NCBI GenBank assembly: GCA_964496595.1
Contig: CAZCAI010000002.1
Coordinates: forward strand, 3,782-67,781
Reading direction: 5' to 3'
Source: an uncultured Anaerolineales bacterium
GTDB taxonomy: Bacteria; Chloroflexota; Anaerolineae; B4-G1; SLSP01
DNA length: 64,000 nt
Below, one piece after another: positions 12,104-17,814 of this stretch. The notes beneath the pieces were generated by a model. That model made no database searches. It was given only the letters and a program-made list of their open reading frames with translations, and was not told the origin of the DNA. Every line of letters begins with the position of its first letter. Positions within the stretch are counted from its first letter, which is position 1. Made by a program: the position numbers and the translations under genes.

Positions 12104-13005
12104 GGTTGATTCAAAAGCACGGTCAAAAGTGCGGCCCATACGCCTCCTTCTAGCATCAATAGCCCGCTCCACAGAAAATACGCTGCCACCCGCACACGCT
12201 GATAGAGCAACAGCCCTAATCCCCCGTTGAGCAGCAGGAAAACTCCCCCCATCAAGCCGAAGTAGAAGATTCGCGCTTCGCCGGTAACTAAGAGCGTCTC
12301 GCCCTCCGGGCCAAAGCGCATCACAATCTCGGAAGGAAGCGCGGGATAAACTCCACAAATCACGGCCAACAACAGCACCAGCGATCCCAGGCCGATGGCC
12401 AGCGGCCCCCAGACCATGCGATCCTGCCAGAGCCACCAATCCAAAAAGCCGGGATGTGTGGAGGCCTCTTCCACCTCCTGCGTCGGCCCCATCTCCATGC
12501 GCTCGCGGAACGCGGTGAGGAATTCCTCCAAATCCGCCGGGGAGATGGCGTAGGACAGGCTGCCGGTGCGAATGATGACCAACTTCTCCAAGGGCGCGGT
12601 TGCGTAGAACAGGATCGGGCCGAGATCCTCGGCCTCGCCAGCGCCGACGAAGTAACCGGGCCAACGCAGGCCGGGCCGCATCGCAAGGCCGGCGACCTTC
12701 TCGCCGGAGAAGACCTCGCGCACCGAGGCCATCGGAATTTGATGCTGGCTCAATCCCCAGTGAATCGTGATGGCGTTGCGATCCATCTCATAGGCGGCCT
12801 GCACCACATTCCAGAGGTGCAGGCTCACCCAGGTCAAGAGCAACATTGCCAGCACGGCCCCCAAACTCATCAGGAAGGTCCAAATCGAGATGAGGATCTG
12901 GGTCACGCCGAAGAGCAATCCGCCGGCCGTGATCAGGAGCACGGCGGCGATCAGCAGGCCGATGCGCCAGCCGCGCTGGATGTTCGGTTCCCACAGGTTA
13001 CGCAT
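12100..13005 (-). CDS. Membrane protein with bacterial PH-like domain
   Basis: Two N-terminal and three C-terminal TM helices around a soluble segment (LRWPGYFVG, LVIIRT...YAISP); overlaps recR stop. Confidence 0.6.
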   Translation of the reverse strand: MRNLWEPNIQRGWRIGLLIAAVLLITAGGLLFGVTQILISIWTFLMSLGAVLAMLLLTWVSLHLWNVVQAAYEMDRNAITIHWGLSQHQIPMASVREVFSGEKVAGLAMRPGLRWPGYFVGAGEAEDLGPILFYATAPLEKLVIIRTGSLSYAISPADLEEFLTAFRERMEMGPTQEVEEASTHPGFLDWWLWQDRMVWGPLAIGLGSLVLLLAVICGVYPALPSEIVMRFGPEGETLLVTGEARIFYFGLMGGVFLLLNGGLGLLLYQRVRVAAYFLWSGLLMLEGGVWAALLTVLLNQP

Positions 13006-13621
13006 CGCCGAATTCCTGTCGGGATTCCAGCGCGCGCGTCAATGTGACGGCGTCCGCGTATTCGAGATCCCCGCCCATCGGCAGCCCGCGTCCCAACCGC
13101 GTGATGTGCAGATCGAGGGGTTTGAGCCGTTGTAGCAGATAGGCGGCGGTGTAATCGCCCTCGCTGGTGGGATTGGTCGCCAGGATAATTTCCTTGATGG
13201 CCTTATGCTCTGCGGCATGGATGCGCGAGATTAACTCGGCGATACGTAAGTCCTCGGCGAAGATGCCCTCCAACGGAGAGAGCGCGCCATGCAGGACGTG
13301 GTAGACGCCCTTGTACTGCTCCGTCCGCTCGATAGCTAAGACATCCATCGGCTCCTCGACGACGCAGACCACGCTATGATCGCGCGTCTCGTCAGCACAG
13401 ATAGGGCAGGGATTGTCCTCCGTCACATTGTGGCAGATAGAGCAGAAGCGCGTGCGCTCGACGAGGCCGGTAAGGGCCTCCGCCAGGCGCAGCGCCAACT
13501 CCGACTTGCCTCGCAACAGGTAAAACGCCAGGCGCGAGGCGGTCTTCGGCCCGATCCCCGGAAGCTGTGAGAGCGTCTCGATCAGCTCGGTGACGGAAGG
13601 GGGAACTGCGGTGCTCGCCAT
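12998..13621 (-). CDS. recR: Recombination mediator RecR
   Basis: LPGIGPKTASRLA HhH, CSIC...CPIC zinc finger, YHVLHG, EGDYTA, EYAD TOPRIM motifs. Confidence 0.97.
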   Translation of the reverse strand: MASTAVPPSVTELIETLSQLPGIGPKTASRLAFYLLRGKSELALRLAEALTGLVERTRFCSICHNVTEDNPCPICADETRDHSVVCVVEEPMDVLAIERTEQYKGVYHVLHGALSPLEGIFAEDLRIAELISRIHAAEHKAIKEIILATNPTSEGDYTAAYLLQRLKPLDLHITRLGRGLPMGGDLEYADAVTLTRALESRQEFGDA

Positions 13622-13625
13622 AGGC

Positions 13626-13973
13626 TCAGAGGCCGGGGATTCCTAACCCGCCGGTGAAAGCGGACATCCGCTCCGCCATCAACTCCTGAGCTTTCTGGAT
13701 CGCTTCATTGACTGCCGCGAGCACCAAGTCCTGCAACATATCCACATCTTCAGGGTCAACGACCTCCGGCTTGATGGCGATGTCCTGAATTTCCAGCCCG
13801 CCGGTGATAGTCACCTCGACCATCCCGCCGCCGGAAGAGACGGTCAAAACCTCCTGCTCGACCTCGGCCTGAGTCTTCTGCATCTCCTCCTGCATCTTCT
13901 GAACCTGACGCATCATCCGGTTAGGATCTAACCCACCCATACCACCACCACCACGACGTCCTCGACGTCCCAT
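13626..13973 (-). CDS. ybaB: YbaB/EbfC nucleoid-associated protein
   Basis: GGGMVEVT, DPEDVDMLQDLVLAAVNEA; canonical position between dnaX and recR. Confidence 0.95.
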   Translation of the reverse strand: MGRRGRRGGGGMGGLDPNRMMRQVQKMQEEMQKTQAEVEQEVLTVSSGGGMVEVTITGGLEIQDIAIKPEVVDPEDVDMLQDLVLAAVNEAIQKAQELMAERMSAFTGGLGIPGL

Positions 13974-13992
13974 AGTTAAATTACCTCCTTTA

Positions 13993-14054
13993 AAATAGTT
14001 AAATAGTCAGATGTCCTATAGTCAAACAATCTTTGGTCAGATAGTCAAATAGTC
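13993..14054. repeat. Degenerate 7/8-mer tandem array (A[A/G]ATAGTC, about 8 units)
   Basis: aaatagtt aaatagtc agatgtcc tatagtc aaacaatc tttggtc agatagtc aaatagtc fills the dnaX-ybaB spacer. Confidence 0.6.
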
Positions 14055-14059
14055 AACGG

Positions 14060-15838
14060 CTACTCATCGGCGGTAACCACCGCGCCTAGCTCCTCCTCGG
14101 CGCGGCGCACGAGTTCGTCCTCATCTTCTTCATCAGGTGAGCTTGCCGCCCTGGTATTGCGCTGCGCTTGTGGGGATGTCGAAGCAGGTTGGGCTTCGGC
14201 GGGTGAAGGGGAAGGCGAGGGTGCGTCTTTCTGCGGCGCGGGTTTGGGTGTGGGTTTAGAAGATGAAGTCGAGGCGGCCGGTTGCGTGGGCGGCTGCCAA
14301 CTGTCCGCCTCGCAGCGCACGATGATCTTCTGGGAGAACATATTGGAGAGGATGTCCTCCACCTGGCGGCGGTTCTCATCCTGCTGCACGCGATTGCGAT
14401 GGAATTCGTGACGGAAACCCATCACAAGTCGCCCCTCAAGATCGACGCCCAAGGGCCTGGCGCCGCGCAGGAGCGCGCCTAAGCTCACGTTCGCCGACTG
14501 CACGCGCCCGACAATTTCACGCCAATACTCGTGGATTTTCCCCATCGTTTCTGGCGCCAGGCCCGACACGGACGATGGTTCAGGGGCCGGTTCTTCAGCG
14601 TCCGAGGAAGCGGCTTCTCGCCCGGCATCCTGCTGTGAGGGGCGGTCAGGCTGGATTTTGCGCACGCGGCGCGCCTGGCGCTGCTGCGTTGAACCTTCCC
14701 GAACCGTAGCAGCGTCCTTCTCGGGCGCTTGCTGGACGATCACCTGCGTTTCGACGGGTTCCGGCTCCAGTGTCGCCTCCACAAAGGCCAACTCCAGCGG
14801 CAACTGGGCCAGCCAGCCGCTCCGGCGCGCCGACGCGACCTCACTAAAGCGCCGCGTCGCCTCGACCAGGCGGTTGGGCTTCGTCTGCTGGGCCATCTCC
14901 TGGAGGAGCGGGCGCTCCTCCGGTGTGGGATCGGTCCACGTATCGCCGGCGCCCAGGCGCATCAACAACAGGCCGCGCAGGAAGTCCGCCGTCTGTCCGG
15001 CCAATTGACGCGGGTCCGCGCCGCTATCGACCGCGTGATTCACGATCTGCAATCCCTTGTCCAGGTCGCCATCCAACCAGGCCTGCACCAACGACTGTAC
15101 TACATCGCGTCGCTCAGCGCCCAACATCGTCCGCACATACTCCACCGTCACGCTGCCCCCCGCCGCCATCTGATCGAAGAGGCTGATCGCATCGCGCATA
15201 CTACCGGTCGCTGCCCGCGCGATCAGGTCTAACGCCTCCGGGCCGACATCGACCTCTTCCTCCTCGGCGATCCGCTCCAACCGGGTCACGATCTCCCGCA
15301 AGGGAATACGCCGGAACTCAAAGCGCTGACATCGCGAGATCACCGTGGGGAGGATTTTGTGCGGCTCGGTCGTCGCCAGTACGAAGATCACGTGCTCCGG
15401 CGGCTCCTCCAACGTCTTCAACAGCGCGTTGAAGGATTGCGGCGATAGCATGTGTACCTCGTCGATCACGTAGACCTTGTAGCGCGCGCGGGCGGGATGA
15501 AACCCCACCTTCTCCAACAGATCGCGGATATTGTCCACGCCGGTATTGGACGCCGCGTCGATCTCGACAAGATCCATCAGTTGCTGATTGGCAATCGCCC
15601 GGCAAATCTCACATTGGTTGCATGGGCGATTTTCGATGTCTGGATCCACGCAATTGACCGCCTTGGCGATGAGTCGCGCTGTCGTCGTCTTACCCGTCCC
15701 TCGTGGCCCGGCCAGTAGATAAGCGTGATGGATGTGGTCCGTGTGCAAGGCATGGCGCAGGGTGCGCACGATATGCTCCTGCCCCACGACATCATCAAAG
15801 GTTTGTGGACGCCATTTGCGGTATAAAGCCTGTGCCAT
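14060..15838 (-). CDS. dnaX: DNA polymerase III subunit gamma/tau
   Basis: ALYRKWRPQTF, GPRGTGKTT, EIDAAS, IDEVHML and SRCQRF; Pro/Ser-rich C-terminal linkers. Confidence 0.97.
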   Translation of the reverse strand: MAQALYRKWRPQTFDDVVGQEHIVRTLRHALHTDHIHHAYLLAGPRGTGKTTTARLIAKAVNCVDPDIENRPCNQCEICRAIANQQLMDLVEIDAASNTGVDNIRDLLEKVGFHPARARYKVYVIDEVHMLSPQSFNALLKTLEEPPEHVIFVLATTEPHKILPTVISRCQRFEFRRIPLREIVTRLERIAEEEEVDVGPEALDLIARAATGSMRDAISLFDQMAAGGSVTVEYVRTMLGAERRDVVQSLVQAWLDGDLDKGLQIVNHAVDSGADPRQLAGQTADFLRGLLLMRLGAGDTWTDPTPEERPLLQEMAQQTKPNRLVEATRRFSEVASARRSGWLAQLPLELAFVEATLEPEPVETQVIVQQAPEKDAATVREGSTQQRQARRVRKIQPDRPSQQDAGREAASSDAEEPAPEPSSVSGLAPETMGKIHEYWREIVGRVQSANVSLGALLRGARPLGVDLEGRLVMGFRHEFHRNRVQQDENRRQVEDILSNMFSQKIIVRCEADSWQPPTQPAASTSSSKPTPKPAPQKDAPSPSPSPAEAQPASTSPQAQRNTRAASSPDEEDEDELVRRAEEELGAVVTADE

Positions 15839-15966: not shown

Positions 15967-15996
15967 AAAAAATCGAGAGCACGGGCATGCTCTCGA
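15967..15996 (-). terminator. Intrinsic terminator upstream of dnaX
   Basis: Minus strand TCGAGAGCA-TGCCCG-TGCTCTCGA-TTTTTT. Confidence 0.65.
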
Positions 15997-16051
15997 CAGT
16001 CATCGGAATCTGAAAAATCTTGTCGGGACAACAGGCAACCTTTTCAAGACA

Positions 16052-16141
16052 GCAAAAGGCCGGGGGTTGTCCCAGTACCCCCGGCCTCATCAGAAGGAGG
16101 AGAATCATTTTGCTTTGATGTGGGCCCCGATTCCCACTACG
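16052..16141 (-). ncRNA. Candidate small RNA, sibling copy 1 (anti-SD core, intrinsic terminator)
   Basis: Minus strand -10 TATAGT (16147-16152), 5' hairpin GTGGG/CCCAC, ATTCTCCTCCTTCTG core, 10-bp GC stem + TTTT; 74-nt core differs at one position from copy 2. Confidence 0.6.
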
Positions 16142-16172
16142 CTTTTACTATACTACATTCTTGTACCTGATA

Positions 16173-16200
16173 CTTGACGCGAATCTGACGCTTTTCTTAC
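16173..16200. promoter_or_regulatory. Conserved 28-bp box containing TGACGC-N5-TGACGC direct repeat (copy 1)
   Basis: CTTGACGCGAATCTGACGCTTTTCTTAC identical at 16411-16438; both lie exactly 20 bp from the -10 box across a non-conserved spacer. Confidence 0.6.
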
Positions 16201-16287
16201 GATACGGAGCGTAAGATAAAAATCATCAGGATCATAACGGGTACTATGCCGCAGAGATTTCGAGGGAAAGTAACACGTCCCCTCCCC

Positions 16288-16379
16288 AAAAAAAGAAGGC
16301 CGGGGCGTTCTATTAGCCCCGGCCTCATCAGAAGGAGGAGAATCATTTTGCTTTGGTGTGGGCCCCGATTCCCACTACG
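16288..16379 (-). ncRNA. Candidate small RNA, sibling copy 2
   Basis: -10 TATAGT (16385-16390), same core as copy 1, 9-bp GC stem with different loop followed by TTCTTTTTTT. Confidence 0.6.
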
Positions 16380-16410
16380 CTTTTACTATACCGCACCCTC
16401 TTATTTTCTG

Positions 16411-16438
16411 CTTGACGCGAATCTGACGCTTTTCTTAC
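16411..16438. promoter_or_regulatory. Conserved 28-bp box containing TGACGC-N5-TGACGC (copy 2)
   Basis: Identical to 16173-16200. Confidence 0.6.
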
Positions 16439-16581
16439 ACAATTTTTACGGGGAGATAGATCTGGAGCGTCTCCCTGGATGAAAAGCCAACCCGACCCTT
16501 TGACTTTTTACTTTGCTGTGGCAAAATCTGGTTGATGAATTCCACGCTATATCAGTATATGAGATAACCGGAGGCAACTAC

Positions 16582-17814
16582 ATGAGAGAGGATCTATCGC
16601 GCTTGATGGCCGAGCGCAATTTGGACGCTATCGTGATCAGCGGTAAGGTGCACGGCAACCCGCCGCTCACCTATCTGACGAAAGGCGCAGGTCTCACGCA
16701 AGCGTTGATCATCCAGAAACGCGGAGATGGCCCGCAGGCGATCATCAACCCGATGGAGCGCGAGGAAGCTGCCATTCTGGGGTATCCGTTGACGCTCAAC
16801 TCACGCTATAAGTTTCACGAATTGCTCCGAGAGCACGACGGCGATGCGCTGCGCGCGACCGTGGCCTACTACGCCCGCATCTTTGAGGATTTGGACGTCC
16901 AGGGCCGGGTGGGATTTTACGGGTTGGCGGATCAGGGCCAGGCTTACGCGCTGCTCACGGCGTTGGCTGCCAACCTGCCGAATATTCACATCGTCGCGGA
17001 GTTCCAAGATGATCTATTCAGCGCGGCGCGGACGACGAAGGACGCCGCCGAGGTCGCGCGCATCCGTGAGATGGGCCGGCGCACGGCGGAGGTCGTCCGG
17101 CAGACAGAGGCCTTCCTGCGCGAGCACGCGGTCGATGCCGACGAGCGACTCCGCCGCGCCGACGGCGAGATCCTCACCGTGGGCGATGTCCACGCCCACA
17201 TCCGCCGCCTGATCGCGCTCCAGGGGCTGGAAGATCCGGAGGGCTTTATCTTCGCCACCGGGCGCGACAGCGGCATCCCGCACAGCAAGGGCGCGCTGGA
17301 GAAGCCAATGCGCCTGGGCGAGAGCATCGTCTTCGATATCTTCCCTTGCGAGGCGGGCGGCGGCTATTTCTTCGATATGACGCGCACCTTCTGCCTGGGG
17401 TACGCGCCGGACAAGCTCCAACGCATCTACGATGATGTGTTCGCATGCACGCGCCACATCATCGCTAACCTGGAGGTCGGCGCCGCCACGCGCCGCTATC
17501 AGCAGATGACGTGCGCCTTCTTCCGCGAGCGCGGCTACGCCACCGTCGAGGAGGATGCCTCGGCGCTCTCCGGCTACATTCACAGCCTGGGCCACGGCGT
17601 CGGGCTGGAGCTGCACGAGGCGCCGATGTTCCGCGATACACCGGATAACACCGCCCAGATCGCGCCGGGGCACGTCTTCACGGTGGAGCCGGGCCTCTAT
17701 TATCCCGATGAGGGGATGGGCTGTCGCATCGAGGACGTCATCTACGTCGATCCCGAGGGCAATTTCCAGAACCTCACCGCGTATCCCTATCAATTGGTCA
17801 TCCCGATGGCGTAA
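16582..17814 (+). CDS. M24 family (Xaa-Pro) aminopeptidase
   Basis: IPHS, FDIFP, DMTRT, HSLGHGVGLELHE, TVEPGLY and RIED pita-bread motifs; GGAGG RBS before ATG 16582. Confidence 0.9.
   Translation: MREDLSRLMAERNLDAIVISGKVHGNPPLTYLTKGAGLTQALIIQKRGDGPQAIINPMEREEAAILGYPLTLNSRYKFHELLREHDGDALRATVAYYARIFEDLDVQGRVGFYGLADQGQAYALLTALAANLPNIHIVAEFQDDLFSAARTTKDAAEVARIREMGRRTAEVVRQTEAFLREHAVDADERLRRADGEILTVGDVHAHIRRLIALQGLEDPEGFIFATGRDSGIPHSKGALEKPMRLGESIVFDIFPCEAGGGYFFDMTRTFCLGYAPDKLQRIYDDVFACTRHIIANLEVGAATRRYQQMTCAFFRERGYATVEEDASALSGYIHSLGHGVGLELHEAPMFRDTPDNTAQIAPGHVFTVEPGLYYPDEGMGCRIEDVIYVDPEGNFQNLTAYPYQLVIPMA

Follow-up and report, generated by a model that had tools for sequence, protein, structure and literature searches.

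The window examined here, a 64,000-nucleotide stretch of DNA from an uncultured Anaerolineales bacterium, carries two near-identical units side by side on its minus strand (16052–16450), and they raise the question of whether these are genes in their own right and, if so, what they encode and what switches them on. We consider it probable that each of the two is a separate gene, driven by an activator and read from the minus strand, whose product is a trans-acting small RNA of ~80–90 nt that would act by blocking ribosome-binding sites. The RNAs belong to an apparently undescribed, strongly conserved family with a dedicated operator. The kind of system is known; the family is new.

A repeat finder delimits the units as two direct repeats of 137 nt at 16064–16200 and 16302–16438 (minus strand), 87% identical and spaced by 238 nt. 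Each begins with a 28-bp box, GTAAGAAAAGCGTCAGATTCGCGTCAAG, that is identical at 28/28 positions (16438–16411 in unit A and 16200–16173 in unit B, minus strand). A spacer of equal length, 20 nt, follows (16391–16410 and 16153–16172, respectively); it is unconserved, with an information content near 0 across the family units aligned below, and the two spacers match at only 9/20 positions. Then comes the -10 hexamer TATAGT (16385–16390 and 16147–16152), and in the minus-strand reading a TTGACA-like -35 element is absent upstream of it in both units. The 74-nt blocks 16152–16079 and 16390–16317 differ at a single base, T versus C (CACAUC/CACACC). The original prediction had listed exactly these features, namely an identical box, a diverged spacer of equal length, TATAGT without a -35 and a core differing at one base, and the minus-strand reading and the repeat finder confirm them all. 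It had also described the box as a pair of hexamers. Both hexamers are there, but a third lies 11 bp further upstream in each unit. The array of unit B (16173–16201, minus strand) reads CGTAAG (16201–16196), CGTCAG (16190–16185) and CGTCAAG (16179–16173). That of unit A (16411–16450, minus strand), also with an 11-bp period, reads TGTAAG (16439–16434), CGTCAG (16428–16423) and CGTCAAG (16417–16411), with a weak CGTAAA (16450–16445) in front.

Small RNA A is predicted to span 16288–16378 (minus strand; ~91 nt), its start being placed 7 nt past the -10, and to consist of a 5´ hairpin (16375–16358), the seed GAUUCUCCUCCUUCUG (16344–16329), a terminator stem-loop (16324–16298) and a U tail (16297–16288). 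The predicted small RNA B (16053–16140, minus strand; ~88 nt) has the same parts: a 5´ hairpin with the stem GUGGG/CCCAC (16137–16120), the seed (16106–16091), a terminator stem-loop (16086–16058) and a weak U tail (16057–16051). The two score 68.8 and 84.4 bits, respectively, with the covariance model R1 described below. The GC hairpins of the two units, GGCCGGGGGU-ACUGGGACA-ACCCCCGGCC and GGCCGGGGC-UAAUAGAAC-GCCCCGGCC, differ in stem top and loop and retain their pairing, as had been claimed. The further claim, that a U-run follows the stem, holds well for unit A and less so for unit B, where the run is weak (UUUUGCUGUCUUG). Both hairpins have the form of intrinsic terminators, with a 9-bp stem followed by UUCUUUUUUU in unit A and a 10-bp stem followed by UUUUGC, the weaker of the two, in unit B. 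The conserved terminator loop UGGGAC is kept in unit B (16073–16069), and unit A has AUAGAAC. A second terminator-like hairpin with a T6 run (15972–15997, minus strand) lies between small RNA B and the promoter of dnaX, and it may be a back-up terminator that catches read-through from the weak terminator of small RNA B.

The same promoter organization recurs throughout the family. We gathered 97 distinct family units from the loci of an exact-pattern scan and aligned them on the last hexamer, CGTCAAG, which was the sole hexamer in the search pattern. Hexamers 1 and 2, at -22 and -11, were outside the pattern and are 88–100% conserved per position, the middle hexamer being the best conserved of all (98–100%). 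The ~18 nt downstream of the array carry no information, and a TAnnnT -10, mostly TATAGT or TATAAT, stands 19–21 nt after CGTCAAG in 97/97 units. What is conserved is the array of hexamers together with -10, seed and stems; the spacer is not. The operator is made up of at least three hexamers with an 11-bp period (CGTAAG/CGTCAG/CGTCAAG), with AAGYAN at the -35 position. Promoters whose -35 is replaced by direct repeats with an 11-bp period are characteristic of OmpR/PhoB-type response regulators, and the promoters of the family have this form in sequence: 3–5 hexamers as direct repeats in the place of the -35, with a recognisable -10. By this analogy, the array-binding protein is most likely an OmpR/PhoB-type response regulator. 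In a genome of another family with up to 7 RNA copies (G116, family f13), both inspected copies (L230 and L231) are without a hexamer array. A consensus TTGACT-N17-TATAAT promoter is present in one of them and possibly in both, as is to be expected if the array substitutes for the -35 elsewhere.

The operator is coupled almost exclusively to the RNA, with hardly any instance away from the RNA genes. In the genome of the window, which is metagenome-assembled, 5.0 Mb in size and 88% complete, a 33-nt position weight matrix derived from the 97 units scores only the two small-RNA promoters, with 56 of a possible 57 bits for unit B and 48 bits for unit A; the next best site reaches 7.7. Neither the weight-matrix scan nor the regular-expression scan of this genome revealed other regulon members. 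One further site on the plus strand (C11:34458–34486) fits a generic three-hexamer pattern, CGTTGG-N5-CGTTAG-N5-CGTTGG. Lying across the stop codon at the end of an ORF of 891 aa and 22 nt short of the next gene's start, it has no -10, is probably due to chance and was rejected as a regulon member. In the family, the strict array CGTNAG-N5-CGTNAG-N5-CGTCAAG occurs 70 times in 60 of 71 genomes (reversed control, 0), and TTCTCCTCC is found 41–71 nt downstream in 66/70 cases; at least one of the four seedless arrays sits at a contig end (G852:C177:29–57). For the class, CGTAGG-N5-CGTAGG-N5-CGTCMAG has 41 occurrences in 37/181 genomes (control, 0). When such CGTAGG-type arrays were searched for by the array only, 29/30 of those sampled had YTCTCCTCC and a terminator 37–144 nt downstream. 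The genome scan for further copies and boxes that the original prediction had proposed yields two units only, with the box nowhere else in the same genome.

Within the transcribed part, GAUUCUCCUCCUUCUG and the terminator stem are kept in the family while the rest of the RNA body varies, with at least three types of 5´ domain. The flanks of the seed (GAUU..., ...CUG) are likewise conserved within the family, and the class-wide core UUCUCCUCCUU is at least 90% invariant. The estimated length of the RNA in family units is 64–88 nt (median, 81). RNAalifold applied to 54 family sequences supports the terminator, with compensatory changes in 6/10 pairs. In the class-wide alignment, 10/10 terminator pairs change on both sides and 98.8% of the cells are paired, counts that are somewhat inflated because this alignment was fitted to a covariance model; the covariation score of the terminator is 0.726 here, compared with 0.19 for shuffled and at most 0.175 for slid versions. 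The 5´ hairpin of the main subtype covaries as well (GUGGG/CCCAC, UACGG/CCGUA, UGCGG/CCGCA, AGCGG/CCGCU). G-U pairs outnumber A-C pairs by 23 to 3, and the -10 and the U tail are on the same strand, which fits the minus strand as the RNA strand. The U tails are short in many copies; in family units, the last 2 nucleotides at the 3´ side of the stem and the 8 that follow contain a median of 6 T.

Unit B, folded to minimum free energy, has a single-stranded seed between two hairpins. An alternative fold of unit A pairs a G-run in the 5´ domain with the seed, and RNAalifold proposes the same GGGG:CUCC helix, which is beyond covariation testing because it is invariant. The G-run itself is an invariant part of the 5´ domain (16128–16125 and 16366–16363), and these folds suggest that it could pair with the seed and mask it. 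A small ORF (MILLLLMRPG..., a 53-codon frame in unit B) was considered and rejected, as its opening AUG before the seed is missing in most relatives. Long forms of ~150–190 nt are found in other Anaerolineae families (L124, L128, L129, L150, L245–L249 and L260–L261) and have an extra conserved 5´ domain, GGCAUGGCCCAUGGCGGGCGAGCAACC...CAUGGGCCAUGC (GGCAUGG...CCAUGCC), between promoter and seed.

The original prediction spoke of a system of "this lineage", which underestimates its scope. By BLAST, the unit is present in 33/37 sampled genomes of the same GTDB family and in 0/24 from two sister families, and of the 89 stretches that an exact-pattern scan found in public genomes, almost all come from metagenome-assembled genomes of Anaerolineae or Chloroflexota. 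The genome of the window has only two copies; family genomes have 1–4, commonly with two or three in tandem, and the maximum in the class is 7. Covariance model R1 was built from the transcribed part of family units only, leaving the promoter array outside, and its E-values, like those of the model that followed, are rough. It matches 73/401 genomes sampled across the class and only 2 non-class genomes in a sample of the phylum. Its matches in at least 10 other families have the seed UCUUCUCCUCCUUUUG and the terminator and, upstream, 3–5 CGTAGG-type hexamers with an 11-bp period that end in CGTC(A/C)AG ~20 nt before a -10. As the model had never seen these arrays, they testify independently to the association of promoter and RNA. 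A second model, R2, was rebuilt from 67 sequences from across the class and matches 283/401 class genomes (71%) and 159/216 genera; in the phylum sample it finds 38 further class members and only 9 of ~355 non-class Chloroflexota. Four of the non-class matches were inspected, of which one has an array and three are without one and look spurious. The units are conserved as promoter-plus-RNA modules across the class Anaerolineae, and full modules are present in four complete genomes.

A few individual matches deserve comment. An array of four CGTAGG hexamers, together with a -10, CCUCUCCUCCUUUG and a terminator, is also present at one locus in another class of Chloroflexota (L222 in G459), which may mean either that the module extends past Anaerolineae or that it was transferred. 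A perfect Anaerolineae-type unit on a 1364-nt contig labelled Lentisphaerae (L080) probably reflects a binning error. Matches on contigs labelled Hadarchaeota and Flavobacteriales (L041 and L110) were dismissed as fortuitous, lying within other sequence. The R1 matches at 658 kb of the complete genome G073 turned out to be ORF-end terminators, and the true copy, at 2.94 Mb, was found with R2.

Other readings of the box and of the units' position have to be weighed. GTAAG...CGTC loosely resembles the -35 and -10 elements of ECF promoters, and the box might therefore be an ECF-type sigma promoter (GTAAG-N16-CGTC); alternatively, it might hold a divergent sigma-70 promoter on the plus strand (TTGACG-N18-TACGAT), a pair that scored 9/12. 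We give these readings little credence. The middle hexamer, which would fall within the spacer of an ECF promoter, is the best conserved of all, other families have three to five evenly spaced hexamers, the TAnnnT -10 keeps a fixed distance downstream, and the 20 nt past the box are unconserved. The plus-strand pair in the window is what hexamers 3 and 1 look like in reverse complement, and no TAnnnT results when a CGTAGG array is read on its opposite strand. A divergent promoter would, moreover, make only antisense RNA at the 64 loci at which rlmN lies upstream on the same strand. These loci belong to a conserved synteny, rlmN-RNA-dnaX-ybaB-recR, in which dnaX is found at 39 loci. In Firmicutes, the equivalent position upstream of dnaX is held by the SRP RNA gene. 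In the window, dnaX-ybaB-recR (12998–15838, minus strand) lies downstream of the small RNAs, and the upstream position, occupied by rlmN in most relatives, is taken by a divergent gene (16577–17814, plus strand) that reads like an M24/Xaa-Pro peptidase. The conserved order of RNA and dnaX could mean that the units work in cis, as leaders or attenuators of whichever gene follows them (dnaX here and a response regulator elsewhere, as in one genus with a regulator gene after a copy whose hairpin is without a U-run). We find this scarcely credible, and the same goes for functionless degenerate repeats: dnaX is ~215 nt away, behind the second terminator and with its own promoter (TTGCGA-N17-TAGACT, ~15880–15852), and copies are scattered over many unrelated loci and also arranged in tandem. 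The conservation pattern and the covariation rule out junk repeats, and neither terminal repeats nor target duplications are present.

In the mechanism that we favor, the array would be occupied by an activator that binds direct repeats, most likely a response regulator of the OmpR/PhoB type in its phosphorylated form, which would recruit RNA polymerase to a promoter with a good -10 and no -35. The RNA would expose the pyrimidine tract GAUUCUCCUCCUUCUG (core UUCUCCUCCUU) between a variable 5´ domain and the covarying GC terminator hairpin, and the tract is predicted to pair with AAGGAGG-type ribosome-binding sites and to block the initiation of translation. The prediction follows from the presence in the tract of CCUCC, the canonical core of the 16S anti-Shine-Dalgarno sequence; the 16S gene is absent from the assembly of the window. 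The pairing would probably proceed without Hfq. The Hfq domain PF17209 is absent from the window's genome (88% complete) though it was detected in 5 control genomes, tblastn was negative too, and CsrA and ProQ were not detected in this genome; KhpA was found. A duplex scan of the genome gave 11–13-nt sites overlapping the Shine-Dalgarno sequences of rpsC, metG, two genes for ABC substrate-binding proteins, a phosphoribosyltransferase gene and others, which are leads only, since any strong Shine-Dalgarno sequence scores well.

That the same scan found no single long perfect target would also suit an RNA that acts as a global mimic of the 16S 3´ tail and, when induced, slows translation in general by titrating Shine-Dalgarno sequences throughout the genome. 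The CCUCCUU within the invariant core is similar to the canonical 16S 3´ tail, a tract of 11–16 nt that is invariant across >20 families would suit many partners, and there are up to 7 copies per genome. Extended to the class, the idea becomes a one-regulator, one-RNA-family circuit whose operator array serves essentially these RNA genes alone and in which the RNA mimics the 16S 3´ tail and a signal triggers a general brake on Shine-Dalgarno-dependent initiation, a proposal to which we give an outside chance. Mimicry as such seems unlikely for reasons of stoichiometry, as the RNA would need to be as abundant as the ribosome-binding sites on mRNA. The family-conserved flanks of the core (GAUU..., ...CUG) suggest extended, specific duplexes instead, and multi-target seeds are highly conserved in ordinary small RNAs too. 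Base-pairing might also be dispensed with altogether, the RNA sequestering a protein by its pyrimidine tract or its G-rich loops (UCGGGG, UGGGAC). G-runs or GGA-like motifs are indeed conserved in both hairpin loops, and the multicopy layout resembles that of sponges of the CsrB/RsmZ type. The candidate clients CsrA, Hfq and ProQ are those not detected in the genome, with only KhpA remaining; each RNA has a single pyrimidine tract and at most two GGA motifs, and it is the loops that vary between subfamilies and the tract that is constant, all of which makes a sponge distinctly improbable.

An activator-driven RNA that pairs with ribosome-binding sites has its closest counterpart in the csRNAs of Streptococcus. 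These depend on CiaR, number 2–6 per genome and are 51–202 nt long; in their promoters the CiaR box, a direct repeat NTTAAG-N5-TTTAAG, replaces the -35 and lies 10 bp upstream of the -10, and two stem-loops flank an unpaired stretch with complementarity to the Shine-Dalgarno sequence, after which comes the terminator (PMC3091779). The Anaerolineae RNAs are similarly multicopy, have hexamer-N5-hexamer repeats in place of the -35 and, as folded for unit B, leave an anti-Shine-Dalgarno stretch unpaired between the 5´ stem-loop and the terminator. Unlike the csRNAs, they have a box of CGTNAG in at least three copies that ends 19–21 nt before the -10, and which is not a CiaR box; they lack a conserved anti-AUG element, share no sequence or Rfam similarity with csRNAs and belong to a different phylum. 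CiaR also drives ~10 promoters of protein genes, whereas the Anaerolineae array is found almost only at RNA genes.

Comparable features are spread over several other systems. LhrC1–5 of Listeria are siblings, partly in tandem, that are induced by the two-component response regulator LisR, act independently of Hfq and use C/U-rich motifs to pair with ribosome-binding sites; they present three short UCCC motifs in loops and a single-stranded stretch, whereas the Anaerolineae RNA has one long invariant UUCUCCUCCUU tract. RsaE/RoxS of Bacillales, controlled by an OmpR-family regulator (ResD/SrrA) and by Rex, directs C-rich motifs to Shine-Dalgarno regions and is likewise conserved at an unusually high taxonomic rank. 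It gave no Rfam match here, however, and has several CCCC motifs, is usually single-copy and answers to regulators with large regulons, in contrast to the multicopy RNA and RNA-dedicated array described here. OmrA and OmrB of E. coli are adjacent, tandem-duplicated siblings under EnvZ-OmpR, each with its own OmpR-dependent promoter, and in this resemble the two units of the window; their seed is 5´-terminal and not anti-Shine-Dalgarno, they depend on Hfq, and OmpR has many other targets. The "cuckoo" RNAs CcsR1–4 of Rhodobacter (CCUCCUCCC motif) are tandem siblings with an anti-Shine-Dalgarno motif of the CCUCCUCC type, but the motifs are in hairpin loops and the RNAs are co-transcribed with a small ORF from one RpoHI/HII promoter; a match to the cuckoo RNA of Rfam is absent even at E ≤ 10.

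More generally, Rfam 15, with its csRNA, LhrC, RsaE, OmrA-B and cuckoo families, has no match at gathering score in the whole 64-kb window, and at E ≤ 10 there are sub-threshold matches only, such as ncr982 with 22.6 versus 50 bits. Fifteen class-level variants gave no Rfam match except an unrelated partial T-box. A full-text literature search found no description of this RNA family and no report of small-RNA regulation in Chloroflexota. The claim that the system is undescribed therefore stands, with no Rfam family and no paper matching it. The companion claim, of a regulator-driven system of sibling small RNAs analogous to csRNAs and LhrC, is supported at the level of sequence by conserved modules, covarying stems and an operator tied to the RNA. 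In kind, these would be activator-dependent, multicopy, anti-Shine-Dalgarno small RNAs, in a phylum almost unexplored for riboregulation.

Sediments, digesters and wastewater sludge are rich in Anaerolineae, and the module offers a concrete entry point to the small-RNA biology of Chloroflexota, as the RNA is found in ~70% of sampled class members, several complete genomes included. Base-pairing small RNAs conserved at the rank of class are few, and it is unusual for a transcription factor to have its sites almost exclusively at small-RNA genes; if true, the whole output of the regulator would run through post-transcriptional control. The covariance model could enter Rfam as a new family and improve the annotation of metagenome-assembled genomes, and the 11-nt invariant seed can be used for target searches. 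The sharply defined operator should allow the regulator to be identified.

As to candidates for this regulator, neighborhood analysis found no conserved two-component system near the RNA loci. Copies of subtype c (5´ domain GCGCAGGAACGCAAGCGACA; L027, L034, L058, L089, L094 and L117), all from one genus (g8), have a gene for an OmpR-type regulator 50–250 nt downstream on the same strand, and in the two that were inspected (L027 and L034) the hairpin is without a U-run. Autoregulation of the adjacent gene by read-through is possible in this genus, judging from the arrangement. The adjacent regulator was rejected as the universal activator: its best match in the window's genome (C1:88734–89531) is only 42–44% identical and has its own orthologues elsewhere in other genomes, at 74–81% identity, so that the regulator of genus g8 is a lineage-specific paralogue. 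The region of this best match (C1:86930–89531, minus strand) contains the OmpR-type regulator, 74–81% identical across the family, followed by a small-GTPase-like gene and two genes that read as Hsp20-like.
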